From: a virus
Taxonomy: Duplodnaviria > Heunggongvirae > Uroviricota > Caudoviricetes
Length of the DNA: 24,331 nucleotides
Direction: 5' to 3' (one strand)
Virus record (IMG/VR): IMGVR_UViG_2778261216_000006
This document shows positions 1,462 to 16,608 of this stretch, piece by piece. The first letter of the stretch is position 1, and each line of letters begins with the position of its first letter. Below the pieces are notes generated by a model, which ran no database searches, was not told the DNA's origin, and was given only the letters and a program-made list of their open reading frames with translations. A program made the translations under genes and the position numbers.

Positions 1462-1469
1462 ATATGTCC
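1460..1469. repeat. attL core (10-bp direct repeat, overlaps region just after phoQ stop)
   Basis: AAATATGTCC is repeated at 16609-16618 immediately upstream of roxA. Confidence 0.5.
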
Positions 1470-1540
1470 TTTTATCATTAAACACAACCAACCAATTGAT
1501 TTAATTAAATAAATCTCACTGCAGAAAGTGCCAAAAATCG

Positions 1541-1612
1541 CAAATTGACTACACCATTAACTACACCGTTCGGTGCACTGTATGAAACAACGTGGAACAA
1601 ATAGACACAAGA
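1541..1612. repeat. Left arm-type repeat (ATTGACTACACCATTAACTACACCG ... GAAACAACGTGGAACAA)
   Basis: ~75-bp imperfect direct repeat of 16455-16535; it lies ~70 bp inside the core, as expected for integrase/Xis arm sites. Confidence 0.5.
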
Positions 1613-1898
1613 AATATACAGGCGGGTAATCTTTCCAGGGGGAAGCGCACCAATTCATGAGGGGCGTTAATGTCGATATGGGGATCCCCATAACGGGGCT
1701 ACCGGATTTTTTTTCCGGTTAACCTTTAATCAGGCTGGTGGGTTTTACATACCCTTGATCACCGTAATGATGATCCAGATGTGCACCTTTTCCACCAATG
1801 GCGGAAAGCTCCAACCGTAACGATGATCGCTATGGTTGCCTCGATGGCCTGCGTGGTCATTATGACCATTCAGAATGTGAGGGATGATGTTTCCGCTC

Positions 1899-2305
1899 TC
1901 CTCAAATTGAGGTTACCGGAAATATCAACTACTTAACGATAAACTGGCGAGTAATTAAACTGCGAAAATTTCGTAGCTTGTGACTATCTGAAAGATCGTC
2001 GGTTGTTCCGGCCTCAACCGTTGGCTGTTTCCGAGAATATCAACGGGTTAGCAAAGCGCAATTTTGCACTTTGCTTTAAGTTCAACCAGTTACCGCCAGC
2101 TTCCCCCAATGGGGGATTGTGGAATAATCAACGGTTTAGGCCTTAATCATCTGCGTAAACATAAGTAATCATAATGATCATTCAGCCAGCGCAATTTTGC
2201 GCTTTGCTTTAAGTTCAGCGAGTTACAGCGCCGACTTCCTCAAATTGAGGTTGCCGGAAATATCAACCAGTTACGAGGCTCAAAATTGAGCCGCCTTTAA
2301 ATCAA
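1899..2305. repeat. Structured non-coding repeat region near the island left end
   Basis: No ORF of 60 aa or more; two ~40-bp direct repeats carrying palindrome CCTCAAATTGAGG (1899-1940, 2237-2277), two copies of hairpin AGCGCAATTTTGC(G/A)CTTTGCTTTAAGTTCA (~2056, ~2190), five (A/T)ATCAAC motifs. Confidence 0.5.
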
Positions 2306-2309
2306 CACG

Positions 2310-2591
2310 TTACCGCCGTAACCGCTCCGGCTTCTTCCAGTTGTACGTAATTTTCTCTTTCTCCCTGTACATCTCTACACGGCGATTGTAGGCCAGCATT
2401 TCAAGAACGCGGATCCGTATGTCGCGCATATCCGCATCATTAAGCTGGATACCATCACGGCGCATCACCTCAGCAACAACACGCGCATAATTTTCGGCTG
2501 TCACGCTGTCCGGCTGCGTGGTCTGTTCGTCAGCCTGCTGGCTGATTCCAGAGACGCGGCGGATTAATCGCAGTATTTCGGCTTCTGTCAT
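2310..2591 (-). CDS. Hypothetical protein (93 aa) immediately downstream of terminase large subunit
   Basis: ORF begins 14 nt after the TerL stop with a GAGG ~10 nt upstream; no recognisable family. Confidence 0.5.
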   Translation of the reverse strand: MTEAEILRLIRRVSGISQQADEQTTQPDSVTAENYARVVAEVMRRDGIQLNDADMRDIRIRVLEMLAYNRRVEMYREKEKITYNWKKPERLRR

Positions 2592-2604
2592 GCTGCTGAC
2601 CTCA

Positions 2605-4266: not shown

Positions 4267-4606
4267 GCTCGTCCTCTTCTTCTGTTTCCGGTGGATTTTT
4301 ACGGCGGCTTATCGGGTCAAAACCGAGCAAAGAGGCCATTTTTATCATCACTCTTTCAGCGTCGGATTTTGCGCTTAATGCGGGGTTTCTGCTCTCGCCG
4401 CCCTGACTGTTAACAATGCTGAACCCGCGCGCCGCAAGGTCTGCAACGGCTTTCCGGTAAATGGAGTAGTTGACACAATACAGTTCCAGATTGCTCCAGT
4501 CGGCGGGGGTCAGGTCTCCCCGTTCCGCAAGCTGCCTAGATTTTTCCCGCCACTGCTTCACGGCGATATCATCCAGGTAGGCGGGGGCTTTCGGTGGTCT
4601 TGCCAT
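4250..4606 (-). CDS. Phage terminase small subunit (P27-family-like)
   Basis: 118 aa; LELYCVNYSIYRKA and RNPALSAKSDAERVMIKMASLLGFDP match the small-terminase signature; directly upstream of TerL. Confidence 0.85.
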   Translation of the reverse strand: MARPPKAPAYLDDIAVKQWREKSRQLAERGDLTPADWSNLELYCVNYSIYRKAVADLAARGFSIVNSQGGESRNPALSAKSDAERVMIKMASLLGFDPISRRKNPPETEEEDELDRLE

Positions 4607-4728
4607 GCTTATTTTTCGCCAGATTATTTTTCAAAAAATTCCCGTGCATAAAAATTTGAGGAGGCGTTCGGTGCCCGGCGGGGTCGGGTTTGTCCTGAAA
4701 ACGCCCCCCACCCCGTCATACAGCCTCA

Positions 4729-4911
4729 TCAGCGATTGCGGAAACATTCCATAACCTCGCGGTCACGGTCGGTTAATCGCTTCGCTGTGATGCGTTCTGC
4801 GCGTCCTGACGCTTTATCTTTATGCCCTGTTTCCTGTGTCTTCCATGCGTCACGCTGCCTTATAAGTCCACGGATAAGGCGGTTTTGTTCCCGATCATTC
4901 ATCAGCGTCAT
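4729..4911 (-). CDS. Hypothetical small charged protein (~60 aa) between HNH and TerS
   Basis: C-terminal part of track ORF 4729..5133 lying past the HNH stop (MTLMNDREQNRLIRGL...); the start is my estimate. Confidence 0.35.
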   Translation of the reverse strand: MTLMNDREQNRLIRGLIRQRDAWKTQETGHKDKASGRAERITAKRLTDRDREVMECFRNR

Positions 4912-5335
4912 ACATCCAGTTATTGCGGTTAGCGGCCCGTTCTTCCTCTTCACGAAATCCACCTGCGGCACGCTTGCTTTTTGTTGCCGGATCAAGCCAT
5001 TTCGTTTTCTGGTTATGACACGCCTGACACAATGGTTGATGGTTCCATTCGGGCCAGAAGAGAACATCATCACCGCCATTAATCGGGATAATGTGATCCA
5101 CCACCACGGCGGGCGTATATATCCCCTTCTCAAGGCATCGCACGCATAACGGGTTTTTACTCAGATACATGGCGCGGTATTTGTCCCACTGTCTGGAATA
5201 TCCACGCGCGCGGCGGTGTCCTCGTCTGGCATCCTCTGCACGCCATGCCGCCCGCCTGTGCTCTTCACACTTGCCGGATTTAACGCGCCTGTTACAGCCT
5301 GGTTCTGTGCATCGTCTTAATGGTTGCCACGGCAT
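4895..5335 (-). CDS. HNH endonuclease (phage packaging-associated)
   Basis: 146 aa; Cys-rich N-terminus, VVDHIIPINGG and CQACHNQKT motifs. Confidence 0.9.
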   Translation of the reverse strand: MPWQPLRRCTEPGCNRRVKSGKCEEHRRAAWRAEDARRGHRRARGYSRQWDKYRAMYLSKNPLCVRCLEKGIYTPAVVVDHIIPINGGDDVLFWPEWNHQPLCQACHNQKTKWLDPATKSKRAAGGFREEEERAANRNNWMYDADE

Positions 5336-5631
5336 CAGTACACCCCCACATCACGGTAAGCCGTCCAGAGTGCGCCAATCGTCATGGGTACGCGTGTTTT
5401 TGCGTTATCCGCGACAATCTGGCGATTCTCATACAGGTGAGCGATAAACATCATGCAGCCAATCTTTATGGCTGGCGTGAACTCCAGCCCGTCATCAAAG
5501 CGCCTGCCTATGTGTATCTGGCACGCCTCAAGCGATGCGGCAATGTATCCGCTGATTAACTGGTCTTCCTCGTCGCCATCGATGCGGCAATGGAGTTTCA
5601 CTTCTTCCAGGGTGATAAGTTCTTCTGTCAT
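5335..5631 (-). CDS. gp6-like head-tail connector protein
   Basis: 98 aa; LITLEEVKLHCRIDGDEEDQLISGYIAA N-terminus typical of this family. Confidence 0.8.
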   Translation of the reverse strand: MTEELITLEEVKLHCRIDGDEEDQLISGYIAASLEACQIHIGRRFDDGLEFTPAIKIGCMMFIAHLYENRQIVADNAKTRVPMTIGALWTAYRDVGVY

Positions 5632-6008
5632 TTTTCCGCGCCCTCACGACAAAGAATTTCAAGGCGTGTCCTGGCGGCATCCGGCAGCGGCTGCCCGATG
5701 ATATTCAGTACACGCCCCGCCAGCGGCCCCGTACTGACCTTTATCCGGCTGGTGGCGTTGATGTCCTTCCGGTACCGTATCCAGATCCTTACGGTACCAA
5801 TCGCCAGCTCTGCACCCGATGAAATGGCCTCCTTGCTGCTGACCATGTTCACGCTTGCCCAGAGTGTGTGACCGTCCTCCCACGTTTCGAGTATTTCGCC
5901 GGTTATATCCCTGGTCTGTTTCAGGGTCTGAATCGTTATCCTGTCACGCAGTCGCCCTATGTTCATTCCGGTTTTTCTCCCTCGCTGATTTTTACTTCCT
6001 GTTTCCAT
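5628..6008 (-). CDS. Phage head closure / head-tail adaptor protein
   Basis: 126 aa; MNIGRLRDRITIQ ... VRIWIRYR ... pattern; the true start may be the internal Met near 5966. Confidence 0.78.
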   Translation of the reverse strand: METGSKNQRGRKTGMNIGRLRDRITIQTLKQTRDITGEILETWEDGHTLWASVNMVSSKEAISSGAELAIGTVRIWIRYRKDINATSRIKVSTGPLAGRVLNIIGQPLPDAARTRLEILCREGAEK

Positions 6009-7174
6009 GCCTGGCTGAACTCATCACCACCATCACGCGGTGACAGTCCTTCACGTTCGCGGGCTTCGTTCGGACACATAACGCCGGATTTGATGCCGCG
6101 CTCATAGGTGGCAAAGCGTTCGCCAGGTGTGGCCCGTAACAGGTCCGCGCTGTCAAACTCCACCTGATACCGGATACCAGGTACAGGCGAGGCCACCAGC
6201 AGGGCGTTTTTTATCTGCTGCTCAAAGTTCGCCAGCCACGGGCGCATCGTCATGGTGAGAAATGCGCGGCTTGCCTCGCTGAAATTGCTGTAGGTGCTGT
6301 TGCTGTATTCCTGCAAAAAAATCGGCGAGACGTTGAACATTCGGGCGATGTCTTCAATGGTGAAGCGACGGGAGGCCAGCCATTCAGCATCCTGATTACT
6401 CATGCCCAGCTGCTGATAGCTCATACCCCCTTCAAGGATGGGCGTTTTTCCGGCGTTTCTGGCCCCTTTGTAGCGTTCCAGTGCGGCTAATGCCTGTTTG
6501 CCCTTCACGCCGTCCAGCCATTCGCCTGACGTGATAACCCCTGCCGCCATCATGCCATCACGCATCACGCTCGCGCCGTGGCGTTGTTGGGCCAGCCCAA
6601 GCCCCAGCGATTCGCGGCAGATGGTTACAGGTGAGCGCCCCATAAAGCCGTCATCCGTGGAGTAACGAAGGTGAAGTACTTCCCACGGTAAATAGTTGCG
6701 GGTGTTTCCGGTGTAAGCGTCAGTGATGCAGTAGCGCCAGTTGTGTTCGCCTGTCTGCTCCACGTTCACCGACTGCGGCGGGTAAGGATGTAAAGCCACC
6801 GGAAAACCATCACGCCCCCACTGAATCACCGCATAAGCATTACCGTTTAACAGGCAGTGGCGGATCATCATTCGCTTAAACTGGTAGGGAGTCTGCCACG
6901 CGTTCGGGCGCTCGTTGAGGATGTGATCGACCGGATGAGAATCAAGCCACTCGCGGGCCTCCTTCCCCTTCTCATTGCGTACCAGGTACAGGTAACACGG
7001 CATGGTAGCCACCGCCTCAGAGATGACCGTGACGGCGTTCATAACGGCGGGCAGTGATTCCGCTGTCCCCGATGATACGTACTCACCCGCCCCCGTGTTC
7101 GATGTGCCAGCCAGCGCCATAAACTCATCAAGCGTCATGCTGCGCTGCTCTTTTTTTCTTCTGAAAGGCCACAT
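5963..7174 (-). CDS. Phage portal protein, HK97 family
   Basis: 403 aa; size and conserved blocks of the portal family; lies between protease and head closure genes. Confidence 0.9.
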   Translation of the reverse strand: MWPFRRKKEQRSMTLDEFMALAGTSNTGAGEYVSSGTAESLPAVMNAVTVISEAVATMPCYLYLVRNEKGKEAREWLDSHPVDHILNERPNAWQTPYQFKRMMIRHCLLNGNAYAVIQWGRDGFPVALHPYPPQSVNVEQTGEHNWRYCITDAYTGNTRNYLPWEVLHLRYSTDDGFMGRSPVTICRESLGLGLAQQRHGASVMRDGMMAAGVITSGEWLDGVKGKQALAALERYKGARNAGKTPILEGGMSYQQLGMSNQDAEWLASRRFTIEDIARMFNVSPIFLQEYSNSTYSNFSEASRAFLTMTMRPWLANFEQQIKNALLVASPVPGIRYQVEFDSADLLRATPGERFATYERGIKSGVMCPNEAREREGLSPRDGGDEFSQAWKQEVKISEGEKPE

Positions 7175-7175
7175 A

Positions 7176-7748
7176 TCACACCCCCGCTAAATCCACCCAC
7201 CAGCGGCGATTATCCGCACGCGGCATTTTTTCGGGGTGCTGCTCATACAGGGAACGGCGGGCCAGCTCCACGCCGGAATCGGGGTAAGCCGGTACCGATG
7301 TAACGGTAATTTCGTACAGTTCCGCCACCAGCACGGTGCGCACGCATGGATCTGTTGTGGTATCCCATACATCCTTACGGGAGCGAAAGCCAAAGCTCAT
7401 CCCCGAGATGTCCCCACGCTTAACCAGTTCGATAACGTCGCGCCCTGTACTGGTATCCGGTGGGGTCAGTTCAAAGCGTAACCCTGTTTCGTCCTCTTCC
7501 AGTTTCAGCGTGCCGGAACGGGTGCGCCCCAGTAACATGCTGTGGTCATGCTCATACAGGCCGCGAACGTCATTACCCGCCGCAAGCCATTCAGTAAACG
7601 CCCCCCGCTGGAATTTTTCGTAAAACTCACCCCATAACAGTTCTGAAAGCTTATCCCAGCGAACAACGTAGCCCGTCAGCGTACCGGCTCCGCTGGTGGT
7701 GATTTCCGATGACCGGATTTCCATACTCTTCATAATTTTTTCACCCAT
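7176..7748 (-). CDS. HK97-family prohead serine protease
   Basis: 190 aa; TLTGYVVRWDKLS, HDHSMLLGRT and GMSFGFR blocks. Confidence 0.9.
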   Translation of the reverse strand: MGEKIMKSMEIRSSEITTSGAGTLTGYVVRWDKLSELLWGEFYEKFQRGAFTEWLAAGNDVRGLYEHDHSMLLGRTRSGTLKLEEDETGLRFELTPPDTSTGRDVIELVKRGDISGMSFGFRSRKDVWDTTTDPCVRTVLVAELYEITVTSVPAYPDSGVELARRSLYEQHPEKMPRADNRRWWVDLAGV

Positions 7749-7787
7749 AAAACACTAAAGGGGCTTTTAAGCCCCTTCTGTATGCTG

Positions 7788-8993
7788 TTAATCGTCGTCC
7801 TGTGGCAGTTCCAGAATCTTGATCGCGTTCGAATCCACCACGCCACCGCCTAAATATTTCTGCGTGAAAATTTTGATGAAGCCCGGCTCTGTGAGGTTGT
7901 CCGGTCTGGTGCGAACACCTGTTTCGTGATCAACAATGTAGTAACCGCGTTTGAAGTCACCCAGGGCAATAACGTTATCAGGCATAAACTCCAGATATTC
8001 GACCGGAAGGCCCAGCAACGTATCAGGATCACCCGCCTGTAAACGGTCGCGCCAGATGTAATCACCGTTCGCGTTCTTCACCTTCTGAAGTTTTGCCGCC
8101 GTCGTGGAGTTAACCACCCAGACCGCGTTTTTGCGGTATTTTTTACGTAATGCAAATTTCAGGTCGATCAACGGGTCCGCAGATGTCCACGCCAGAGATT
8201 CGGAAGGTTTAATTACCTGCAACGTACCAAAATCACGCTCTTTGTCGTTCTTCTCTGCACGGGGTACGGATAAAAAACCTTTTGCTTTTTTGTCACCGTC
8301 GCCCACAACCAGATCGCTTTCTTCGGTTTCCGTGAAGGTGTCGCCAATCTCACCCGTCAGCCATGAAAGGATGTCCACATCGGAAAAATCCACGATTTCC
8401 TGTGTGGTGCGCGGGTACGCATAGACCGGATACAGCTTAATGCTCACCTCGTTAATCTGCGGGGTGCTGGTCTGTTCGCGTGTCTTACCCTCTTCACCGT
8501 GGTTAACGGTCGCACCGCCAGCGGAAACAAGCTGCTTAAACTCGTTGCTGCTGATTTTCTTCACGGTACAGATGCGGCGCATGGTGGACTCATCCGCCAG
8601 CATTCGCATGATTTCGGTGTTCAGCTCGGGGATAACGGTATAACCACCATCAGCGGGAACGCCTGTACTTAATGCGCGGGTTTCACCCGTCAGAATGTAG
8701 TTTCGTAGTTCTGCGGGGTCAGTGGTCTGACTGCTTTTACCTGGCTTGCTGCGCTCTTCGTCTGCAATGGCTTCAAGGCGGGAAATGTCTTTATCGAGGG
8801 ATTCAGCTTTAGCGCGTAATTCGTCAAATTTTGCGCCCTCAGCATCGTTAAGACTGCGGTTTTCTTTTTCCGCGTTCTCCAGCATGTCGCGCATCTGATT
8901 TTTAATGGCGGTTTTCTGCTGGCGTAATTCGATTATTCTCGGCATAAAAAAAGTCCTGGGGTTAAGTAAGGAACTCCAGGACGCGGCAAACAC
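7788..8993 (-). CDS. Major capsid protein, HK97 family
   Basis: 401 aa; N-terminal coiled-coil delta-domain-like region, then a conserved HK97-fold body; start (GTG at 8993 or internal Met) uncertain. Confidence 0.93.
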   Translation of the reverse strand: MFAASWSSLLNPRTFFMPRIIELRQQKTAIKNQMRDMLENAEKENRSLNDAEGAKFDELRAKAESLDKDISRLEAIADEERSKPGKSSQTTDPAELRNYILTGETRALSTGVPADGGYTVIPELNTEIMRMLADESTMRRICTVKKISSNEFKQLVSAGGATVNHGEEGKTREQTSTPQINEVSIKLYPVYAYPRTTQEIVDFSDVDILSWLTGEIGDTFTETEESDLVVGDGDKKAKGFLSVPRAEKNDKERDFGTLQVIKPSESLAWTSADPLIDLKFALRKKYRKNAVWVVNSTTAAKLQKVKNANGDYIWRDRLQAGDPDTLLGLPVEYLEFMPDNVIALGDFKRGYYIVDHETGVRTRPDNLTEPGFIKIFTQKYLGGGVVDSNAIKILELPQDDD

Positions 8994-9035
8994 TCAACCG
9001 TTTTTCATAAGGAAATCAGCAATCGCACCGATCGT

Positions 9036-9083
9036 TTTCCCGCCTGGTAATGAATATTGGCGAGCACATTAACAGGCGGGAAA
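9036..9083. promoter_or_regulatory. 11-bp perfect inverted repeat TTTCCCGCCTG / CAGGCGGGAAA with 26-nt spacer in the leader of the capsid operon
   Basis: Read directly; located 45-90 bp upstream of the capsid gene start. Confidence 0.35.
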
Positions 9084-9157
9084 GTGGCCCCAGCGTCCTG
9101 GCACCACGGGCGAGAATAATCATGATTCAGTTCGGGTAAAATATGCCGATCCGCTCA

Positions 9158-9189
9158 GTGAACAACGTGGAACAACCACGAACAAATAA
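9158..9189. promoter_or_regulatory. Dyad motif GTGAACAACGTGGAACAACCACGAACAA upstream of the capsid operon
   Basis: Contains palindrome CGTGG-AACAA-CCACG; near-identical copy, inverted, at 15115-15145; half-sites inside both att arm repeats. Confidence 0.4.
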
Positions 9190-9226
9190 TTTACAAAAAA
9201 TAACAAAAAGCCGGATTGCTCCGGCT
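9190..9226 (-). terminator. Rho-independent terminator (hairpin AGCCGGAGCAATCCGGCT plus T-run on minus strand)
   Basis: Stem-loop followed by TTTTTGTTATTTTTT on the minus strand, just downstream of ORF 9246..9470. Confidence 0.6.
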
Positions 9227-9245
9227 GTATGTGCTGTATGGGTGC

Positions 9246-9470
9246 TCAGTCTCTGATCCCTTTCAGAAATTCTATCAATGCATCTGTCTGTTCAGGATTT
9301 ACTGCCAGCATTTCACCGGATAGCGCGCAACGAACAAAACCATGATGATCCTTTTCAATCAGCGCCCCCGTTTCCAGAAATGCGCGGTAATCAGTGATAT
9401 TCATCGTCTCCATGTTGTCAGCATGGTATTTATCACGCTGTTTAAGTATCTCATCAAATTTCATCGGCAT
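9246..9470 (-). CDS. Hypothetical protein (74 aa), moron-like gene flanked by two copies of the same terminator
   Basis: Internal Met of track ORF 9246..9548, preceded by GAGGAAAACGCA; no family recognised. Confidence 0.55.
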   Translation of the reverse strand: MPMKFDEILKQRDKYHADNMETMNITDYRAFLETGALIEKDHHGFVRCALSGEMLAVNPEQTDALIEFLKGIRD

Positions 9471-9562
9471 TGCGTTTTCCTCTGTTGTGTCTGTTTGTTT
9501 CAGATAGTAACTATGCCGGACCGTGACGAAAAGCCAGTAGTGCTCCATACCGTTTCAAATGA

Positions 9563-9588
9563 CGCAAAAAAGCCGGATTGCTCCGGCT
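9563..9588 (-). terminator. Rho-independent terminator (second copy of AGCCGGAGCAATCCGGCT hairpin)
   Basis: Same hairpin plus T-run on the minus strand, downstream of the PerC-like gene. Confidence 0.6.
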
Positions 9589-9610
9589 GCGTGGTGTGGT
9601 TCTGATATTC

Positions 9611-9859
9611 CTACTCAGCTAATTTGCTCAGCCCCATGTCTGCGTAAGTGCGATTTACTGCATTTCTCAGGTCTGCGTAGTTCTCCGTTGGCGGCTCCGG
9701 TGGCCTCTGTGCCTTCCTGGAACATTCCAGCCGTCGCATCGTAACCTGATGCCGTTCCTTGTCTGTCTCCACCAGTTGCATGACTTCACCCCATCGCGCC
9801 GACGCCCTCCGGTAAAATCCTTTCGCCTCGAGTTCCTCCGCTATGCGGTCATGTACCAT
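9611..9859 (-). CDS. PerC-family-like transcriptional regulator (82 aa)
   Basis: Start at internal Met with strong SD (GAGGGGGTGA); MVHDRIAEELEAKGFYRRASARWGEVM resembles the PerC-family N-terminus (from memory). Confidence 0.5.
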   Translation of the reverse strand: MVHDRIAEELEAKGFYRRASARWGEVMQLVETDKERHQVTMRRLECSRKAQRPPEPPTENYADLRNAVNRTYADMGLSKLAE

Positions 9860-9869
9860 CGTCACCCCC

Positions 9870-10280
9870 TCAGAACGGAATACCGTCACCGTAAGGGTCA
9901 TCGCCTCCCGCTGGTGGCTGATTACCCTGTGTGCCTGTGGTTTTGCGTCTGTTCCCGCCTGGACGTGCCGCGCGGGCACTGATTACGCTGTCTGCAATAA
10001 CCTGATACCCCCGCCGCGTTTCCCCGTTCTGTCCGGTCCACTGGCTTACCTGCATCGTGCCGGATACGCTGGCAACATCGCCTTTTTGATGTTTAGCCAG
10101 GAAATCGGCCTGTTTGCCAAATGCGATAACCGATAACCATAACGTCGCCTGTCCGTCCTGTGCCTGGCTGCATGGCAAAGATACCGCCATACGCGCCAGC
10201 GTCATCGGTGTGCCCTTGCTGGTCTGTTTTACCTGCGGGTCGTCCACCAGCCGCCCGTAAGCCGCTATCTGTGCTGTCAT
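9870..10280 (-). CDS. Single-stranded DNA-binding protein (SSB-like)
   Basis: 136 aa; OB-fold core blocks, Gly/Pro-rich linker and acidic C-terminal tip ending DGIPF; ATGA overlap with the upstream gene. Confidence 0.8.
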   Translation of the reverse strand: MTAQIAAYGRLVDDPQVKQTSKGTPMTLARMAVSLPCSQAQDGQATLWLSVIAFGKQADFLAKHQKGDVASVSGTMQVSQWTGQNGETRRGYQVIADSVISARAARPGGNRRKTTGTQGNQPPAGGDDPYGDGIPF

Positions 10281-10528
10281 GCTGTCTGCTCTCCGGTTTT
10301 AACGTTGATTGTTGTTACCTGTTCCGCTTCGGCAATCTCCCGTTCTGTCAGCGTGGCAAAGTTTGCCGCCGCTGTTGTCATGAATGCGCTTATCAGTTCG
10401 GGATGCTCCTTCGCGTATCCTTCCCCCGCGTGGCGGTCTATCGTTCTGATTGCCACCTTTAAAGCCAGTTCAGCCATATCTAACGCCTTATATTTCGGCT
10501 CTGTTCTGTCTCTGCGTTTTTGGGTCAT
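10277..10528 (-). CDS. Hypothetical protein (start uncertain, 66-84 aa)
   Basis: Track ORF 10277..10558 overlaps the iterons at its 5' end, so an internal Met (10528 or 10477) is the likely start; translationally coupled to ssb. Confidence 0.5.
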   Translation of the reverse strand: MTQKRRDRTEPKYKALDMAELALKVAIRTIDRHAGEGYAKEHPELISAFMTTAAANFATLTEREIAEAEQVTTINVKTGEQTA

Positions 10529-10540
10529 TTCTCGCAACCT

Positions 10541-10730
10541 CTCACTTTTTCGCCTCACTTTTTCAAGCGTCTCACTTCGTCGCAGTTGGGATTTTTGGTT
10601 TTTCTATGTGTGTGTTTCATAAGTATTTTTTTACCCCTCACTTTTGAGGATGTATACAGGTCGAAAAGTGAGGGAGAGCAGGCTAATTTTGGCCCTCTTT
10701 CCACCCCCCTCGCTTTTGCTCCTCACTTTT
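10541..10730. repeat. Iteron array (CTCACTTTT repeats, at least 6 copies in both orientations) with AT-rich spacer: candidate island replication origin
   Basis: Copies near 10541, 10554, 10571 (variant), 10637, 10665 (inverted), 10709 (variant), 10722; immediately downstream of the replication helicase gene. Confidence 0.55.
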
Positions 10731-12138
10731 ATAGCGGCGCTACATCATCCCCATCGATACGAATAACCCCATCTTTTTCCAGCTTGTACAGCCAGCGCCG
10801 GAAGTTTTTCATTTCATACCCCAGTTTTTTCATGTCATCACGTAACAGCGGGATCGTGCACTTGTCGCCGTTCTGTGTGCGTGAACGGATGCACCCCCAT
10901 AGCGCGGTATGGTTTTCCGTCTTGTTCCCTGCCTCCTCGATGCGCTCCAGTTCAACGGGAGGGCGCGGCTTATCCACCACCACCAGCGACGTGATTAACT
11001 CCCCGTCAGCGTCGGTAAAAAGCTCCACCACCCGCAAATCATAGGCAGCCTCTTTGAGTTCCTCCGCGTCCTTCATTTTGGTGCATGAGATAACCAGCGC
11101 TTCGCTTCCTGCGTCCTCCCTGCGTATCCGGTATTCAGCATCCAGTGATGCACGAAATGCACTGGAACCGCGCGCGCCTTTCGTCTCATCCTTGCCGGAA
11201 TGGTGAACCACCAGCACCGTGGCCCCTGTGCGTCGTTTCAGTTCGTCACACCCACGGATAAACGCCCCCATGTCGCGGGAGTCATTTTCATCATTGCCGC
11301 CAAAGCAGCGCGCCAGCGTGTCCAGAATAATCATGCGAACAGGTTTACCCGTTTCCCTCTCCACCTGACTGGCAGCAATAACCAGTTCATCAACATCAAG
11401 CGGGACAGCCGGAAAGATGGGACGGTTTACCAGATACAGATTTTTCACCTGCTCACCGTGCACAACCTCCCAGGCTTTTACACGACGCGGAACGCCGATA
11501 CCGCCTTCACCAACCACATAGAGAACAGCGCCATGCGCCACCCTGCGGCCTCCCCACTGGCGGCCCGTGGAAACGTGACACGCCCACGATCCGGCAAGGA
11601 ATGATTTATAGGAACCGCTCGCCCCGTATATGCTGCAAAGCGACGATGCCGGAATAATCCCCTTTACCACGTAATCAAGCTGTGTGTCGTATCCGGTAGA
11701 TCCAACGCTCATCGGTAGCGTGGTTTTTCGCTGGGGAATTTTTTTCATGACCAGGCTTTCCCCGCGTTCCCATGCCTCCCTAAGCCGTGGAAGCTGGTCG
11801 CTCCATTCCTCCAGCAATTCGAAATTTTCAGAAAGTAGCCGCGCCTCCTGGACTCCGGCGATCGCCAGTTTCGTGGCGATGGTTAACAGCTGCGGCTCTT
11901 CAATATTTCCGGCGCGTATCACCGTCGCCCTGTATCGCCCATCATCAACAATCTGGAGGTTATCCAGTTCGCTTAACTGATAACGCCCCAGATAAACGGG
12001 AGGGACTGGATCGCCTGCTTTTTTGGCCTGTGCAATGATGTAATGCTCTGCGAATGAGTGAGCATCAATACCCGCAAAAATAATCGCATCGGTGTATTTG
12101 TCTTTCGGTAATAGTTTTACGTTCGGTGCCAGTTTCAT
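10729..12138 (-). CDS. Replication protein, RepA-like AAA ATPase/helicase (satellite pri-rep type)
   Basis: 469 aa; Walker A (YGASGSYKSF), Walker B (RMIILDTL), VVHHSGKDETKGARGSSA block. Confidence 0.85.
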   Translation of the reverse strand: MKLAPNVKLLPKDKYTDAIIFAGIDAHSFAEHYIIAQAKKAGDPVPPVYLGRYQLSELDNLQIVDDGRYRATVIRAGNIEEPQLLTIATKLAIAGVQEARLLSENFELLEEWSDQLPRLREAWERGESLVMKKIPQRKTTLPMSVGSTGYDTQLDYVVKGIIPASSLCSIYGASGSYKSFLAGSWACHVSTGRQWGGRRVAHGAVLYVVGEGGIGVPRRVKAWEVVHGEQVKNLYLVNRPIFPAVPLDVDELVIAASQVERETGKPVRMIILDTLARCFGGNDENDSRDMGAFIRGCDELKRRTGATVLVVHHSGKDETKGARGSSAFRASLDAEYRIRREDAGSEALVISCTKMKDAEELKEAAYDLRVVELFTDADGELITSLVVVDKPRPPVELERIEEAGNKTENHTALWGCIRSRTQNGDKCTIPLLRDDMKKLGYEMKNFRRWLYKLEKDGVIRIDGDDVAPL

Positions 12139-12434
12139 TTTTTACCCCTGAATCCGTTAATCATGGTTTTCAGCTTCTGGATGTTTGCCCGTGCCCTGGC
12201 GTTGCTGGTGGGCACGTTATGCGGCGCGGTCTGTACCAGAGAAAAATCACGCCGGAACTGATAAACAGGCATCACGCAATCATATTCGTAACCTTCACGG
12301 CGGTAAGTTACGCACCGTCCCGCCACGCCCTTAATCATTACCATGCCGCCGTACTGGTCGCGGTAAATATCACCGCGCGTAAATTTAGGGTGAGTGTTGC
12401 CACTGGCAGTTAAGCCAGAATATTTAAGTTTCAT
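12135..12434 (-). CDS. Hypothetical protein (99 aa)
   Basis: GGAGA SD ~9 nt upstream; stop overlaps the rep start (ATGA). Confidence 0.55.
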   Translation of the reverse strand: MKLKYSGLTASGNTHPKFTRGDIYRDQYGGMVMIKGVAGRCVTYRREGYEYDCVMPVYQFRRDFSLVQTAPHNVPTSNARARANIQKLKTMINGFRGKK

Positions 12435-12439
12435 TATTT

Positions 12440-12670
12440 TTATTCTCCGGTGTGGGGCGCGTTATTATTTTCGTGAATTGCCATTGCCTTATCCAGTTCA
12501 TCAATAACAGGCGATAGTAATGTCTGAATGGCTGCAAACATTAATGACGAAGATTCTTCGCCAGATTCCGGCACTTCAATTAATTTGCCTAACAACGCAT
12601 TCATTTCCTTTGCGCGGATTAATGCGTTTTCAGAGTGGATTAATACTTCAAAAGGGATTTTATGCATCAC
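12440..12670 (-). CDS. Hypothetical protein (76 aa)
   Basis: AAGGGAG SD upstream; tightly packed in the operon. Confidence 0.5.
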   Translation of the reverse strand: MMHKIPFEVLIHSENALIRAKEMNALLGKLIEVPESGEESSSLMFAAIQTLLSPVIDELDKAMAIHENNNAPHTGE

Positions 12671-12890
12671 AAATTTTCTCCCTTATTCTTTTAATGTCCT
12701 CATTAAGGATGTCTGTAACTTTTATCAGCGAGTTTTTGGCAATTATTTTTATTGTTTTAAGTTTTCTTTTGTCGTGCTCCGACTGTGATTTTCTCTCCAT
12801 GCTCTCCACCATGTGGGTAACATCAACGAGCGCACGTATCAGTATTTGCATTGCTTCTTCTGCTGCGTCCGGTGTGGTTTTATTGTGCAT
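12660..12890 (-). CDS. Hypothetical protein (76 aa), first gene of the replication operon
   Basis: Internal Met of track ORF 12660..12932 with strong SD (AGGGGGAAACCT). Confidence 0.5.
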   Translation of the reverse strand: MHNKTTPDAAEEAMQILIRALVDVTHMVESMERKSQSEHDKRKLKTIKIIAKNSLIKVTDILNEDIKRIREKICDA

Positions 12891-13122
12891 AGGTTTCCCC
12901 CTGGCGAATACGGGCGGCAAATACAGCAACACAACCGGACGGGCAACGGTTACGCGCTTCGCGTTCCGTCCAGGCGGTTACGTGGATGATTTGACGTTCT
13001 GACGCGCCAAAGGCAATAAAGCGCCAGATGTATTTATTCAGGTTGTGCGAGTCCCGCCCTTGCGGGTGTGTGGTATGATTTCTCATAGCTACCTCGATAC
13101 TATTGCTATCGTTGGTGGTTAG

Positions 13123-13156
13123 ACGCCCCGTATGTGTGCCACCACTGCGGGGCGTT
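13123..13156 (+). terminator. Conserved hairpin GACGCCCCG...CGGGGCGTT (copy 1) bounding cassette 1
   Basis: 8-bp GC-rich stem; near-identical copy at 13860-13896. Confidence 0.45.
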
Positions 13157-13167
13157 GCCTTTTGGTG

Positions 13168-13208
13168 CAAGTCACCTTTAAAGGCTATGCTACTTTCAGG
13201 TGACTTGC
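13168..13208. promoter_or_regulatory. 11-bp perfect inverted repeat GCAAGTCACCT / AGGTGACTTGC (operator-like) upstream of cassette 1
   Basis: Read directly; followed by a T-rich tract and TATACT -10-like hexamer (~13241). Confidence 0.4.
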
Positions 13209-13276
13209 ACTTCAAGCCTTTTTTTATTTTTTTTTCTGCGTATACTGAACGCCACCTAACAGTAAGGAGGCCAGTA

Positions 13277-13456
13277 ATGCCAACGGGTACAACCAACAAC
13301 AAATCACAACAAAAAACGGCTAGAGTTCCTCTAGAAGTTTTAAGCGAAATGAATTTGGTCAAAGAAGAAAACGAAACAGACGCGCAATTCATCGTTACAG
13401 CCATGCGCGGCGAAATCAAACGCCGCCAGCGCCGCAAGGCCAAAGAATCAGAATAA
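13277..13456 (+). CDS. Arc-like ribbon-helix-helix DNA-binding protein (59 aa)
   Basis: Strong SD AAGGAGG 6 nt before ATG; RVPLEVLSEMNLVKEENETDAQFIVTAM matches the Arc pattern (P-x-E-V-L ... EEN). Confidence 0.55.
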   Translation: MPTGTTNNKSQQKTARVPLEVLSEMNLVKEENETDAQFIVTAMRGEIKRRQRRKAKESE

Positions 13457-13461
13457 TCACT

Positions 13462-13505
13462 ATCAGCGCCGTGGTGTGAGGAACTCCGGCGCATTGCTTT
13501 ACAGG
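13462..13505 (+). promoter_or_regulatory. Conserved 44-bp intergenic element ATCAGCGCCGTGGTGTGAGGAACTCCGGCGCATTGCTTTACAGG (copy 1)
   Basis: Contains stem GCGCCG/CGGCGC; second copy at 14146-14189 with a single mismatch. Confidence 0.5.
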
Positions 13506-13513
13506 GCAGCACT

Positions 13514-13741
13514 ATGAACGAACACACATCATCACCGGAAAACGGCGAAAGCACGTCAACATATGAAATCATCCGGCAAAGGCAGTCAGAAGCCTGCGCC
13601 AGACTTGAGGAAGAACTAACCAGAACAAAAATACCACCACCAGCGCCGCGCTTAGTGCCACCAGAAAAATTTGCCCTTGAAGATTTTGTCGATAAATACC
13701 CACGGCGGCTTAAATCCGGCAAAAACCGACCGCCAGGATGA
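13514..13741 (+). CDS. Hypothetical small protein (75 aa), partner of the Arc-like gene
   Basis: ATG 9 nt after the conserved element; shares F-A-x-x-x-F-V-D-K-Y-P-R-R block with the 14198..14401 product. Confidence 0.4.
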   Translation: MNEHTSSPENGESTSTYEIIRQRQSEACARLEEELTRTKIPPPAPRLVPPEKFALEDFVDKYPRRLKSGKNRPPG

Positions 13742-13859
13742 GTGCACAAAACCGAACTATGAAACGGATTATTCCGTTTCCGGGGCGTTTGTGTGTGTAT
13801 AAAGAGTAAGCTATGCTCTTTTATAGCCATAATCGTTACCTCAATTAATGGTTTGGTTA

Positions 13860-13902
13860 GACGCCCCGTATGTGTTCCCATCACTGCGGGGCGTTGTTTT
13901 TT
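13860..13902 (+). terminator. Conserved hairpin GACGCCCCG...CGGGGCGTT plus T-run (copy 2), between cassettes
   Basis: Stem followed by GTTGTTTTTTG. Confidence 0.5.
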
Positions 13903-13945
13903 GTGCTAGTTGTGTGTAATGTGTATATACACATAAACACATTAT

Positions 13946-14140
13946 ATGGGTGTAATTGACGTGTCAACACACAAAAATGAAAGGCGTGGTAATCCTCCTT
14001 TCCAGTTCCGTTTAGATCCTGACTTACGGGAAAAGATGGAAAAAGCACAACAACAAGACGGTGATGACTCTTTAGCTGCTTGGATAAAACGAATAATCCG
14101 AAAAGAATTACAGCAACGCGGTATTGAACCCAAAGAATAA
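13946..14140 (+). CDS. Arc-like ribbon-helix-helix DNA-binding protein (59-64 aa)
   Basis: PPFQFRLDPDLREKMEKAQQQDGDDSLAAWIKRIIRKE follows the Arc pattern (from memory); start ATG 13946 or GTG 13961; palindrome ATGTGTATATACACAT just upstream. Confidence 0.55.
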   Translation: MGVIDVSTHKNERRGNPPFQFRLDPDLREKMEKAQQQDGDDSLAAWIKRIIRKELQQRGIEPKE

Positions 14141-14197
14141 AAAACATCAGCGCCGTGGCGTGAGGAACTCCGGCGCATTGCTTTACAGGTACACACA

Positions 14198-14401
14198 ATG
14201 ACCAATAAAGAATCAACCAATACACCATCGCAAAAAACGAACAGAGAGCACGAAAATATGGCGCTCGAGCATGAATCAGAAAGATTCGCTCCATGCGCTT
14301 TTGTCCTTGATGAGTTTCTAAAAAAATATTCACGTTCTGAACGGATGAAAATGGCAGCACAATACGGCCCCAACAAGCAAGGTAATTGCCCACCAGCCTG
14401 A
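14198..14401 (+). CDS. Hypothetical small protein (67 aa), paralogue of the 13514..13741 product
   Basis: Same position relative to the conserved element; shared FxxxxFVLDEFLKKYSR block. Confidence 0.4.
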   Translation: MTNKESTNTPSQKTNREHENMALEHESERFAPCAFVLDEFLKKYSRSERMKMAAQYGPNKQGNCPPA

Positions 14402-14473
14402 TAGCGGCTATCATTCCCGTGCTTATGTTTGGGATCACATACACATAAGGCGCAGCAGGTTAATTGTTCAGAA

Positions 14474-14506
14474 AGGCGGCTCCATATCGGGGCCGCTTTT
14501 TTTATG
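14474..14506 (+). terminator. Rho-independent terminator ending the plus-strand cassettes
   Basis: GCGGC...GCCGC stem followed by TTTTTTT. Confidence 0.55.
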
Positions 14507-14644
14507 CCTGAAAAACCCCAATTTTGTTGTTTTTCAGTTTCACCAGGGCGAACGAATCCCCGCCCACGTTCGGGCGCATATTCAATCTTCATAGTTATAT
14601 CTCTGTATTAGTGGATGTGTGGCGACTGTGTGCCGCCAGTCTTT

Positions 14645-14833
14645 TTAGTGAACTGCCTTGCAGCTATCCTTCCAGGCCAAAACCTCAGATAAAGACCAGC
14701 CAACAGAACGCCCACCAAGTTTACGACGTGATGGGAATTGTCCGGCCTTTTCCAGGCGGTAGCGGCATGAGCGGCTAAGGCCTGTTAGCTTTTCGCATTC
14801 TTTTTCACGTATAAACCGATCAGTGCTTAACAC
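14645..14833 (-). CDS. alpA: AlpA-family phage regulatory protein (Xis-like activator)
   Basis: 62 aa; LSEVLAWKDS-type C-terminus typical of the AlpA family; sits just downstream of the integrase as in PICIs. Confidence 0.88.
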   Translation of the reverse strand: MLSTDRFIREKECEKLTGLSRSCRYRLEKAGQFPSRRKLGGRSVGWSLSEVLAWKDSCKAVH

Positions 14834-14995
14834 TATTGCCCCCTTTCGTTTCTTAAAGAGTTATTTCGTGTTCTATTGCGTTGGGATGTGTCTGATTGTG
14901 TCAGGATGATTCAGAGTTGGCAAATGTTGGTGTCGCATGGTTTACAGAAAGAGGAATAATCAGGATAAAATCATTTAAATTCATGTTAATACAAA

Positions 14996-15030
14996 GGCAT
15001 AAAATCTTGTTTTATGCCTTTTTTCGCACG
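14996..15030. terminator. Hairpin GGCATAAAA-TCTTG-TTTTATGCC with flanking T-run between int and alpA
   Basis: 9-bp perfect stem followed by TTTTTT on the plus strand; weaker T-tract on the minus strand. Confidence 0.45.
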
Positions 15031-15114
15031 CTTTAACGCGTAATTCACTAATGTATAAAAAACCAGTCACACAAATAAAATCAGTCACTTATAAACCTGC
15101 GTACTTTTTCGCCT

Positions 15115-15145
15115 CTTGTTCGTGGTTGTTCCACGTTGTTTCACA
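15115..15145. promoter_or_regulatory. Inverted copy of the GAACAACGTGGAACAACCACGAACAA dyad motif
   Basis: Reverse complement matches 9158-9189 over ~28 bp; ~70 bp downstream of the int stop. Confidence 0.4.
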
Positions 15146-15207
15146 TTGTTCGCCGTTGTATCTGTGTGCTTATCCAGTATACGCATACTGAAAAAACACG
15201 AAAAAAA

Positions 15208-16458
15208 TTATTTTCTTCTGGCTGCTGGTAGTGCGGTTACGTTTTCATGTGTTCCCGCCAGTATCCCTAACCGCTCCGTCCACATATCCAGCGCATTGCG
15301 TTTAGCATCCAGATAACGGGAATGATTATAAACTCGCTGCATTCCTGGCATCTGGTGGCCTGTAAGCTGCTCCACGACGTGCGGATCAACGCCTAAATCG
15401 TTCAGCATGGTTGTAAAGGTGCGCCGGATGTCATGCAGTGACCAGTGAGGGTGTTTAAGCCTCCTGTGCGCTAATCTGCCGTACTGCGACACGCTGGTTT
15501 CCTGTTTCACTTCCCCCAGCAATAAGCCCGTGTGCCTGTTCTGCTCCACCAGCTGCGTGATGAACGGCAGTATCGCTTCCGGTATGGGCCGGAATATGGC
15601 TACCTTCGTTTTACTGTGCTCCTTCGGAACGGTCCAGAGCATTTCGGTAAAATCCCACTCGCCGATCTCAGATAACCTAAGTTCGACCGTCCGGCATCCG
15701 AACACAATCAGGAGGCGGATTAGCGCGATGTAGTAGGGGGAGAATATTTTTTTGTCCAGTGCCTGCAATAATTCGCCAAGTTCTTTGTTGCTTAAGACAC
15801 GCTCGCTTATATCCGGTTTTTTCCCAACGTCAGCCACACTCATATCATCAAGAACGTTGCTGATTGCATAGCGCCGCTTCCTGCAGAACTTAAGCGCCTG
15901 CTTGCATGTCTGTAGCAGGAACCCGGCGGAAACAGGGGCTTTCTTTGCCACCCGATCAAAACAGGCCAGCCAGTGCCGTAGCTCGCATTTATCCAGCGGC
16001 ATAGGGCCAATGTGCTGTATTACGTGATTATTTAGCCGCTTTTTCAGTGGGTCATAATCCACACGGTTTTCCTTTGCGTACGACTCAAGCCAGTAGGTGA
16101 GCGCATCGCCAACCGTTACAGGCTTTAACGCTTCCTGTACGGAGTAATTCATCTCATGGCGTGGATTTTTCCCTTCTGCCAGCCATGCACGACACTGGGC
16201 GGCTTTTTCCCTGGCTGATTTCAGGCTCAGATCAGGATAATTTCCCAGCTTAATGCGTTCCGGTGGTGCCCCCCTTCCCGCTCCGGCCCTGTAAGTGAAA
16301 TACCAGGTTAAAAGGCCGCTGGTTGAATGCCTGACACTCAGGTTTCCACCGTCATTAAGAAAGGCTGTTTTTTGGGCGGGTGTGCCGTTGATTTTCCTTA
16401 GCTGTGTATCGCTCAGTTTGTTAAGTGCTCTGCTCATAATTTTGAATCCGGTCATCAC
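15208..16458 (-). CDS. int: Tyrosine recombinase/integrase, P4-like family
   Basis: 416 aa; N-terminal arm-binding-like region, catalytic-domain blocks (HDIRRTF, LGHQMPG-type); start codon uncertain (GTG 16458, ATG 16455 or 16437). Confidence 0.94.
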   Translation of the reverse strand: MMTGFKIMSRALNKLSDTQLRKINGTPAQKTAFLNDGGNLSVRHSTSGLLTWYFTYRAGAGRGAPPERIKLGNYPDLSLKSAREKAAQCRAWLAEGKNPRHEMNYSVQEALKPVTVGDALTYWLESYAKENRVDYDPLKKRLNNHVIQHIGPMPLDKCELRHWLACFDRVAKKAPVSAGFLLQTCKQALKFCRKRRYAISNVLDDMSVADVGKKPDISERVLSNKELGELLQALDKKIFSPYYIALIRLLIVFGCRTVELRLSEIGEWDFTEMLWTVPKEHSKTKVAIFRPIPEAILPFITQLVEQNRHTGLLLGEVKQETSVSQYGRLAHRRLKHPHWSLHDIRRTFTTMLNDLGVDPHVVEQLTGHQMPGMQRVYNHSRYLDAKRNALDMWTERLGILAGTHENVTALPAARRK

Positions 16459-16535
16459 AATTAACTACACCATTAACTACACCGATCGTTGCACAAAGGG
16501 CTACAACGTGAAACAAGCTGGAACAAGAAAAATCA
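16455..16535. repeat. Right arm-type repeat (ATTAACTACACCATTAACTACACCG ... GAAACAAGCTGGAACAA)
   Basis: Direct repeat of 1541-1612, between the int start and the attR core. Confidence 0.5.
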
Positions 16536-16608
16536 CAAATCTGTTTATAATCAAAAACATAACGCACAACCTGAAACATTATGAAACGGCAAAAAACACT
16601 AATTGATA

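Follow-up and report, generated by a model that had tools for sequence, protein, structure and literature searches.

Antisense ribbon-helix-helix modules between alpA and the replication operon of a capsid-forming phage-inducible chromosomal island: a candidate regulatory region

Organization of the locus

The stretch of DNA analysed here (the window) is the virus record IMGVR_UViG_2778261216_000006, with a length of 24,331 nucleotides, and this work deals with the interval located between the activator gene alpA and the leftward replication operon of the island contained in it. The gene order of the window is phoQ, an island of about 15 kb, roxA, pepT and potA/B. The island genes (window positions 1-16600) code for an integrase, AlpA, an Icd-like protein, a DUF4222 protein, a RepA-like helicase and SSB, and the packaging and head genes for TerS, TerL, portal, S78 prohead protease, major capsid and head completion proteins; tail and lysis genes were absent from this set in family scans of the window genes. 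With its integrase, alpA, replication, capsid and packaging genes and its place between phoQ and roxA, the island is a capsid-forming phage-inducible chromosomal island (PICI), and it shares this insertion site with the prototype Gram-negative PICI EcCICFT073. AlpA is known as the activator of Gram-negative PICIs (PMC6092414).

Two modules are located on the plus strand between alpA and the Icd-like gene (13117-13741 and 13855-14401), and each of them includes a hairpin (HP), a gene encoding a ribbon-helix-helix (RHH) protein, a linker element (EL) and a small gene named S. The coding parts have diverged between the modules, and HP and EL are shared. An earlier note on this DNA had described two plus-strand modules of the same build, antisense to the island operon, and this description holds: the four open reading frames (ORFs) are present, the HP copies found by a direct-repeat search (13116-13164 and 13854-13903) are about 93% identical, and the EL copies (13450-13517 and 14134-14201) show 85% identity over 68 nt and 97.7% over a 44-nt core. 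The features of the interval are the following.

12880..13086, minus strand: Icd-like gene (68 aa), with which the leftward replication operon begins (NCBIfam NF033153, E=8e-17)
13122..13156, plus strand: HP1 hairpin, located between the operators and the site where Icd translation starts (-26.5 kcal/mol, z=-2.8)
13165..13255, no strand: module-1 operator/promoter region, with O3 GTGCAAGTCAC at 13165-13175, O2 GTGACTTGCAC at 13200-13210 and O1 CTGAACGCCAC at 13245-13255
13277..13456, plus strand: RHH1, ribbon-helix-helix protein of the YlcI/YnfO family (59 aa; NCBIfam NF041551)
13450..13517, plus strand: EL1 linker, extending from the final codons of RHH to the start codon of S, with a possible stem-loop at 13466-13492
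13514..13741, plus strand: S1 (75 aa), with 11 homologue clusters, all E. coli 'hypothetical'
13762..13853, no strand: module junction, consisting of the S1-flank hairpin (13762-13781) followed by a foreign Icd 5' end and leader remnant
13860-13895, plus strand: HP2 hairpin (-23.8 kcal/mol, z=-4.2), followed by TTGTTTTTTG to 13903
13901..13967, no strand: module-2 operator/promoter region, with the palindrome ATGTGTATATACACAT at 13919-13934
13961..14140, plus strand: RHH2, Arc-like ribbon-helix-helix protein (PHROG 228 'Arc-like repressor', E=2e-6)
14134..14201, plus strand: EL2, second copy of the linker, with a possible stem-loop at 14150-14176
14198..14401, plus strand: S2 (67 aa), core motif EHESERFAPCAFxLExFLKxY
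14472..14500, plus strand: module-2 terminator hairpin followed by T7 (-21.7 kcal/mol, z=-4.4), before alpA and within the minus-strand leader ORF
14645..14833, minus strand: alpA (Pfam Phage_AlpA, E=4.8e-18)

Distribution of the modules and origin of the tandem

A census carried out by exact-pattern scans of IMG/VR with EL and HP yielded 54 loci, corresponding to 42 unique Icd-to-AlpA intervals. The order Int-AlpA-(S-EL-RHH-operators-HP)-Icd-...-Rep, with the part in parentheses on the opposite strand, was found in 42/42 unique loci and also in EcCICFT073. Most islands carry a single module, and among the 43 unique intervals 10 had two. Of 5426 complete E. coli genomes, 1746 match the region at least in part and 55 have the tandem junction of the window. 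A scan of the GTDB species representatives with the EL pattern gave 0 matches.

The RHH proteins fall into three classes, namely a YlcI type of 59 aa, a YlcI type of 101 aa that is extended at the C-terminus and an Arc type of 57-59 aa, and the S proteins into two; all six RHH-class by S-class combinations were found with a constant spacing of stop codon, 9 nt, 27-nt EL core, 21 nt and ATG. Depending on the island, an S2 that is 98-100% identical lies downstream of unrelated RHH proteins of YlcI type or Arc type. These six combinations and the presence of the same S2 next to unrelated RHH types indicate that HP and EL are conserved borders of an exchangeable segment made up of the operators and RHH, and that S is exchanged separately from that segment. 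The exchangeable slot with allelic variants of one system that had been proposed for the window is thus borne out, since different gene pairs share the slot around the 44-bp element in these islands. No covariation was found between S type and AlpA allele, the same AlpA occurring with different S and the same S2 with different int/alpA.

In one E. coli island type (L049, L048, L054 and L021) EL is retained and S is replaced by an ORF of 178 aa that contains hydrophobic stretches and lies about 340 nt beyond EL, so the slot after EL can carry other cargo. In two others (L008 and L013, about 806-931 of the extracted regions) a 41-codon ORF that ends in ...EIKRRQRRKDKEQE follows S; it represents the 3'-terminal part of a second YlcI-type RHH gene and looks like one more recombination scar.

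The tandem had been regarded as a duplication, a view that needs correction: it consists of two alleles of a normally single module placed side by side and is not a local duplication of one ancestor. Positions 13783-13853, to the left of HP2, show homology to the region around the Icd start and the leader in other islands (L011/L053-type), and the remnant at the junction includes a minus-strand ATG at 13830 and a Shine-Dalgarno sequence at 13839-13842. This homology indicates that module 2 came as a block made up of Icd stub, HP, operators, RHH, EL and S.

That module 2 could be an inert recombination scar, only the Icd-proximal module being at work and the tandem having no function of its own, is improbable in our judgement. 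The rarity of the junction, its stub of another island's Icd start and the fixed order of all tandem islands, with S1 in the Icd-proximal and S2 in the distal module, which suggests one ancestral event, would suit such a scar, but the ORFs, palindrome, promoter hexamers and terminator of module 2 show no damage, RHH replacement has occurred repeatedly in either module within the tandem framework, and at the junction the minus frame continues open or by way of a bridge.

RHH proteins, operators and predicted promoters

The RHH1 sequence matched NF041551 with 63 bits (E=1.9e-17) for a curated cut-off of 30 bits and is consequently a family member; RHH2 reached 19.7 bits with the same model, under the cut-off, and is by score not a YlcI/YnfO member. 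The likely start of RHH2 is GTG 13961 (59 aa) in an ORF that is open from ATG 13946; this choice agrees with the PGAP start in a homologous record (H1) and with homologues that start MST. The two families could be aligned at profile level only, in register. The RHH1 family comprises 114 homologue clusters across Enterobacterales, with a strongly conserved helix pattern, variable residues around the N-terminal AR-x-P-x-x-V strand and about 10 residues after the predicted fold, which leave no room for a toxin-binding domain. A Foldseek comparison of the RHH1 model with PDB gave no match, the PDB sequence search gave none for RHH1 and only ArtA (E=1.1) for RHH2, and nothing useful was obtained in Pfam and PADLOC scans of RHH1, RHH2, S1 and S2. 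The RefSeq labels of the module genes are 'YlcI/YnfO family protein' and 'hypothetical protein'. The Arc-type RHH genes with upstream operators pointed out in the earlier note are in keeping with these matches, which support RHH1 and RHH2 as probable Arc/CopG-like ribbon-helix-helix proteins and putative repressors.

One RHH allele (L050, 289-486) shows 43% identity (E=7e-17) to YlcI of the K-12 prophage DLP12 (L063, 3252-3446). According to this likeness, islands and helper-type phages share a regulator family, and cross-talk (induction, interference) is possible.

The palindromes reported before upstream of both RHH genes were recovered. In module 1 the 13-bp arms (13165-13177 and 13198-13210) are 100% complementary, and in module 2 ATGTGTATATACACAT occurs once in the window versus 0.1 expected. 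Three 11-bp GTG-N5-CAC sites are located upstream of every YlcI-type gene, at -112/-77/-32 from the start codon, and their sequence covaries with the N-terminal strand of the RHH protein in at least 10 types and three genera. The operator GTGAATCGCAC is identical in E. coli, Klebsiella and Morganella islands that have essentially the same RHH. Arc-type modules have palindromes of their own, in 2-3 copies each. A search with the sites of both modules found no further operator copies near alpA or int. This covariation is indirect evidence that the RHH proteins would bind their repeated or palindromic operators through the N-terminal strand. The following promoters were predicted by reading the sequence.

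13215-13210 (-35 TTGAAG) and 13192-13187 (-10 TAGCAT), minus strand: P_left1
13241-13246 (-10 TATACT), plus strand, immediately before O1: P_RHH1
13901-06 (TTGTGC), 17 nt and 13924-29 (TATATA), plus strand: P_RHH2
13967-13962 (TTGACA), 15 nt and 13946-13941 (TATAAT), minus strand: P_left2

In YlcI-type modules the core promoter hexamers are conserved and the operators variable, the predicted leftward promoter having a -35 TTGA(A/C)(G/A) and a TA-rich -10 at 17-18 nt. O2 would lie inside the spacer of the leftward promoter, O3 just downstream of it and O1 at the start of the predicted RHH transcript. A simple promoter scan called none of these sites, and therefore they remain predictions. From this arrangement we infer that RHH acts as a repressor at two promoters, its own and the one leading into the Icd-like/replication operon.

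The S proteins and the two-gene alternatives

The S proteins (57-75 aa) were found in E. coli only, and all their homologues are unnamed. The S1 and S2 families share one motif of 18 residues (profile-profile E=1.4e-4), in agreement with the short common block noticed previously. A profile search with S2 in 1.84 billion representatives gave nine clusters. No significant match was obtained for S1 and S2 in Pfam, NCBIfam or PADLOC; the sub-threshold matches of S2 were Cas8g2/Cas8g (17.6 bits) and DUF2371 (12.6 bits), and its only significant match was a PHROG of unassigned function. Non-synonymous changes in the S2 family had a mean BLOSUM62 score of -0.14 in the plus frame versus -1.39 in the opposite frame, being as conservative as in the RHH controls; for S1 this replacement test carries no information. 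The S proteins are probably real. They are hydrophilic and outside one or two helices their models are mostly of low confidence, the AlphaFold2 model of S2 consisting of helices with a predicted local distance difference test value of about 77-91 in the conserved core only. The core motif of the S family was matched in 13 separate stretches of a repeat protein of 1141 aa from the databases (P0029). S was also considered as an N-like arginine-rich RNA binder, a candidate that was rejected because neither S1 nor the S2 of the window contains the ARKRRRRK stretch.

Islands of Klebsiella/Salmonella and Morganellaceae lack S and EL and carry the RHH gene with its operators between alpA and Icd; S is also missing from some E. 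coli islands. The RHH protein must thus have a role that is independent of S, and S, dispensable in other genera, would be accessory. These data bear on two explanations in which the modules are two-gene systems, both of them raised by the earlier note.

One of them is a type II toxin-antitoxin (TA) or abortive infection system with an RHH antitoxin and an S toxin in two allelic copies, which is suggested by the RHH-first order, the small second gene and the apparent autoregulation. It is very improbable now, as the exchange of S2 between YlcI-type and Arc-type RHH proteins and the six combinations leave no cognate pairing, the RHH fold is followed by too short a tail for toxin binding, S matches no toxin or defence family and has the properties described above, and whole groups of islands do without it.

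The other is an effector operon with its autoregulator (acr-aca-like or helper-directed), in which S would be the payload, for instance an anti-defence or anti-helper protein, and RHH would only throttle the S promoter. RHH is first in the operon with an operator over its own promoter, S evolves fast and is restricted to E. coli, its types swap independently of RHH as expected for an arms-race payload, and the L049 island type holds another gene in the S position after EL. For S itself the proposal may hold. It does not account for RHH at the same place with the same operators and without S in Klebsiella/Salmonella and Morganellaceae, nor for the two of three operator sites that lie over the predicted leftward promoter and not over the RHH promoter, and S has no match in PADLOC or in any annotated family; as an explanation of the whole module we regard it as unlikely, although less so than a TA pair.

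The open frame on the minus strand

In every island the module is crossed by a very long minus-strand frame without stops. In the window it is represented by three ORFs.

13942..14592, minus strand: eta-like leader ORF, first segment (216 codons), antisense to the terminator, S2, EL2 and RHH2
13841..13942, minus strand: bridging ORF (33 codons), whose ATG overlaps the preceding stop (TAATG) and which crosses HP2
12880..13830, minus strand: eta/kil-like nested ORF starting at ATG 13830, which has the reading frame of the Icd-like gene (ATG 13086) and is antisense to S1, EL1, RHH1, the operators and HP1

The chain starts 52 nt downstream of the alpA stop codon, and at its N-terminus it has MKIEYAPERGRGFVRP, which shows homology to the beginning of the EcCICFT073 long ORF; the leader ORF 13942..14592 had no family match. 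The TGA stop of the bridging ORF lies within the Shine-Dalgarno sequence, 10 nt before the next ATG, and this ATG 13830 is the remnant of another island's Icd start. The open minus frame 12880..13884 has 334 codons. Stop-free frames reach 500 codons over both modules in L050, 299 codons, which is the entire Icd-to-AlpA interval, in L053 and 433 codons in EcCICFT073; the Klebsiella/Salmonella type has an open stretch of 246 codons that shares its frame with Icd, and in Morganellaceae a 351-aa minus-strand product of the gene caller ends in the Icd-like domain and fully overlaps the RHH gene. The long frame is either in frame with the Icd-like gene or ends in its Shine-Dalgarno sequence or a few codons past its ATG, and where it is interrupted the next frame begins at an overlapping ATGA or TAATG. 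The NF033153 domain occupies residues 266-309 (window), 381-424 (CFT073) and 307-345 (Morganellaceae) of the long ORFs, and this Icd-like end is the sole domain above threshold in the minus-strand product. The Icd-like protein also matches PHROG families labelled 'transcriptional repressor', a label that we assume to stem from the old annotation of the P4 'cI' ORF.

The long ORF after alpA in EcCICFT073 (L057, 11767-12100) opens with a weak Bro-N-like stretch (Pfam E=0.069, sub-threshold); the leader ORF of the window has lost this part and has kept the N-terminal peptide MxxxYxPExGRGFVRP.

RHH and S always lie in one plus frame; of the minus frames, it is the open one that has its wobble positions in common with them. 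In 51 unique ORFs (3573 codons) this frame contains 1 stop, versus 28.8 +/- 4.7 by synonymous resampling, and the other alternative frames contain 140-230 stops. In the 150 nt upstream of RHH, counted in 24 representatives that are <80% identical, there are 12 stops in the open minus frame versus 91 and 88 in the other minus frames, and the shuffled sequences gave a mean of 74.6 +/- 8.2. The control gene ylcI of a K-12 prophage has no antisense stop within the gene and eight in the 300 nt upstream. Non-synonymous changes were conservative in the plus frame and not in the minus frame in the BLOSUM62 test, which indicates that the plus-strand proteins are real and that the minus frame is merely kept open, without amino-acid constraint. 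The ratio of non-synonymous to synonymous polymorphism (pN/pS) in the minus frame is only slightly above that in the plus frame, and it fails to separate the strands because of the shared wobble positions.

This small difference in pN/pS, a minus frame open in every island and the annotated 351-aa product of Morganellaceae would also be expected if the long Eta-like minus ORF were the only real gene and the plus ORFs were by-products of composition. Such an explanation is hardly credible, given that RHH1 passes a curated model and belongs to a family conserved across genera, that the operators covary with the RHH sequence, that replacements are conservative in the plus frame only and that the minus product has no recognizable domain apart from its Icd-like end.

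Conserved noncoding elements

The earlier note had proposed conserved stem-loops in both HP and EL, and this was found to apply to HP, EL being conserved in sequence only. In 17 HP variants, including those of Klebsiella and Morganella, 96.6% of the cells are paired, with 4 compensatory pairs, versus 39-54% in slid controls, and HP is a real structure. G.U pairs make up 33/238 HP cells and become mismatches if read on the minus strand, so that the plus-strand RNA is the better-supported form. HP2 with TTGTTTTTTG probably serves module 1 as an intrinsic terminator. Where an island has only one module, HP is found between the operators and the ribosome-binding site of Icd. HP was rejected as an integron attC site, being too short and without both core sites.

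The EL stem-loop showed no covariation and its folding was no better than that of shuffled sequence. EL is therefore treated as a linker and translation-initiation region conserved in primary sequence, and no RNA structure is claimed for it. We also rejected a sar-like RNA from the minus strand with its end at EL, as the promoter in the S 5' end is weak and a U-tract after EL is found only in Arc-type modules. A scan of 12000-15500 with Rfam 15 (E up to 5) gave no match across 13100-14510, HP and EL included; the hits in the vicinity scored far under their thresholds.

The type of hairpin present at 14472-14500 is conserved downstream of S in most islands. Two further hairpin-forming repeats are located at 14508-14537 and 14619-14641, the second being terminator-like on the plus strand, and together the three would act as plus-strand stops that shield alpA from convergent transcription. 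In the int/alpA interval, a weak match to Rfam BSnc120 on the minus strand (14976-15057; 27 bits versus a gathering threshold of 114, E=0.0025) is probably a chance match to an A/T-rich, terminator-like hairpin after int.

Within the first Icd codons (window 13066-13090) an extended -10-like motif, TGGTATGAT (13071-13079, plus strand), faces HP. A transcript from it could be an antisense RNA of about 75 nt over the Icd Shine-Dalgarno sequence, ending at HP1. TA-x-x-x-T hexamers are present at this position in other alleles, and the motif may merely reflect conserved Icd codons.

A proposed regulatory role of the modules

We infer the function of the modules, the mechanism included, from the sequence. 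Each cassette is probably one copy of the regulatory (immunity-type) module of the island, similar to eta/kil with a protein repressor in place of the CI RNA. Beyond what had been noted earlier, the region would be a core PICI regulatory region whose opposite strand appears to be selected to stay open, and a P4 eta/kil-type immunity region. The RHH protein may be the missing repressor of Gram-negative PICIs.

In the silent state, RHH would bind two or three operators of its own that overlap two promoters placed back to back, the rightward one for RHH itself and a leftward one into the Icd-like/replication operon, and would hold both down. The terminators HP2 and 14472-14500 would keep plus-strand transcription out of the next module and alpA. 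When a helper switches on alpA, transcripts would continue past alpA into the leader, and ribosomes on the stop-free leader frame would suppress hairpin and Rho-dependent termination, with the result that the polymerase reaches the Icd-like and replication genes. Convergent transcription across the RHH gene would lower RHH synthesis and release the leftward promoter. A transcript from P_left2 would pass through HP2 and the stub start codon and be antisense over module 1, in frame into Icd. In a tandem, two repressors of different specificity would control two leftward promoters feeding one operon, and both would be needed for silence.

Taken further, and only tentatively, the DNA could be a PICI induction switch read in two ways, as a hypervariable RHH immunity repressor on one strand and on the other as a translated leader of irrelevant sequence that connects helper-induced alpA transcription with the replication operon; convergent reading would then flip the island from silent to replicating, and the RHH/operator types would be immunity groups of islands residing in the same cell. 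This is a more speculative proposal than the regulatory module as such.

Helper-dependent alpA activation has been demonstrated for EcCICFT073, and in this island an 'ORF3' reporter is AlpA-dependent (PMC6092414). This dependence fits leftward transcription through the region, provided that ORF3 is the long ORF.

Several points weigh against a repressor module of this kind. The promoters, the DNA binding, the minus-strand translation and the involvement of Rho are all predictions, and we have assumed that ORF3 and the long ORF of EcCICFT073 are the same. The model does not account for S. In the window itself the wobble-sharing frame is broken in the module-2 operator region, continuity depending on two short coupled ORFs, and the 15-nt spacer of P_left2 is suboptimal. 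The G.U pattern of HP favours a plus-strand RNA, a transcript without a place in the model for single-module islands. Finally, Gram-negative PICIs have been described as unidirectional and activator-driven, AlpA overexpression being sufficient for induction (PMC6092414), and a repressor layer may thus be secondary.

A literature search that did not cover subscription journals found no description of the RHH/operator/EL/S module, and the literature on these islands describes them as unidirectional and leaves the repressor question open (PMC6092414 among it). EcCICFT073, capsid-forming PICIs and the islands of other genera all carry an RHH gene in the opposite orientation with covarying operators. 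If RHH is the repressor, island silence and helper induction become directly testable, the hypervariable alpA-replication interval is explained as an immunity locus and PICIs are mechanistically linked to P4. The strand-specific signature would reflect selection on the act of translation, with stops purged in coding and noncoding DNA, and can be searched for elsewhere. Orthogonal RHH/operator pairs are possible parts for engineered PICI 'drones'.

Comparison with known systems

The modules share the predicted RHH fold, the RHH-first two-gene operon and the putative operator at its own promoter with TA systems that have RHH antitoxins (ParD, CopG/TacA, MazE-RHH), from which they differ in having no toxin family, cognate pairing or toxin-binding tail and in the dispensability of S in other genera. 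YlcI/YnfO of lambdoid prophages (DLP12, Qin) belongs to the same NCBIfam family as RHH1, but it is a prophage gene near terminase/cos whose flanks are not kept open on the opposite strand; no description of its function was found in the literature searched.

In the immI region of P22 (mnt / arc-ant, sar), as is predicted for the modules, an Arc-type RHH gene is the first of a short autoregulated operon with a second gene after it, an operator lies over divergent promoters and a short conserved intercistronic segment precedes the second gene. P22 Ant is unrelated to S. A minus-strand promoter for a sar-like RNA was looked for in the S 5' end and is weak.

In SaPIs and other Gram-positive PICIs (Stl(Rpr)-Str), the repressor is divergent from the excision/replication operon, near int and hypervariable between islands (PMC6092414). 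The RHH gene of the modules is likewise divergent from the excision/replication operon, close to int and hypervariable between islands. Stl is, however, a large helix-turn-helix repressor, whereas the RHH protein has about 60 aa, is encoded antisense in a putatively translated leader and exists alongside the AlpA activator. We know of no helper-encoded anti-repressor for the RHH islands.

A close parallel is the immunity region of satellite phage P4, with the order vis, eta/kil, CI RNA and seqA/seqC, epsilon and alpha, where an alpA homologue (vis) is also followed by a long ORF with an Icd-like C-terminal part. The C-terminus of P4 Eta (8168..8812; residues 161-208) matches NF033153 with E=1.4e-20, and the Icd-like protein of the window is the counterpart of this C-terminal (Kil) part. 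The shared domain is visible only with the NCBIfam model, BLASTP of the P4 'cI' ORF with the Icd-like protein giving nothing, and tblastn of the Icd-like protein with phage records gave one satellite-like record only. In both systems the long ORF lies upstream of the primase/replication genes, an immunity determinant is embedded within it and a promoter is internal to it (both known in P4 and predicted here). The P4 ORF overlaps the end of vis, and the leader ORF of the window begins 52 nt after alpA; a long ORF after the alpA homologue with an in-frame Icd-like end is found as in P4, the path in the window needing two short coupled ORFs.

P4 eta contains the CI RNA and seqA (Rfam C4 and isrK matches). 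The promoter inside eta is constitutive, and termination of the transcript made from it takes place through CI/seqA. A coupling exists between eta and the alpA homologue; when full-length eta is translated from the late promoter located upstream, termination is prevented and the genes that follow are read (PMC10111431). C4 and isrK are absent from the CFT073, Klebsiella and Morganella loci, and from the window at E up to 5. Instead of a sense-strand RNA repressor as in P4, the PICI loci have an antisense RHH protein gene with its own operators, accompanied by S in E. coli. In P4 the translation of eta prevents termination, and in the PICIs the corresponding frame is kept stop-free without amino-acid constraint.

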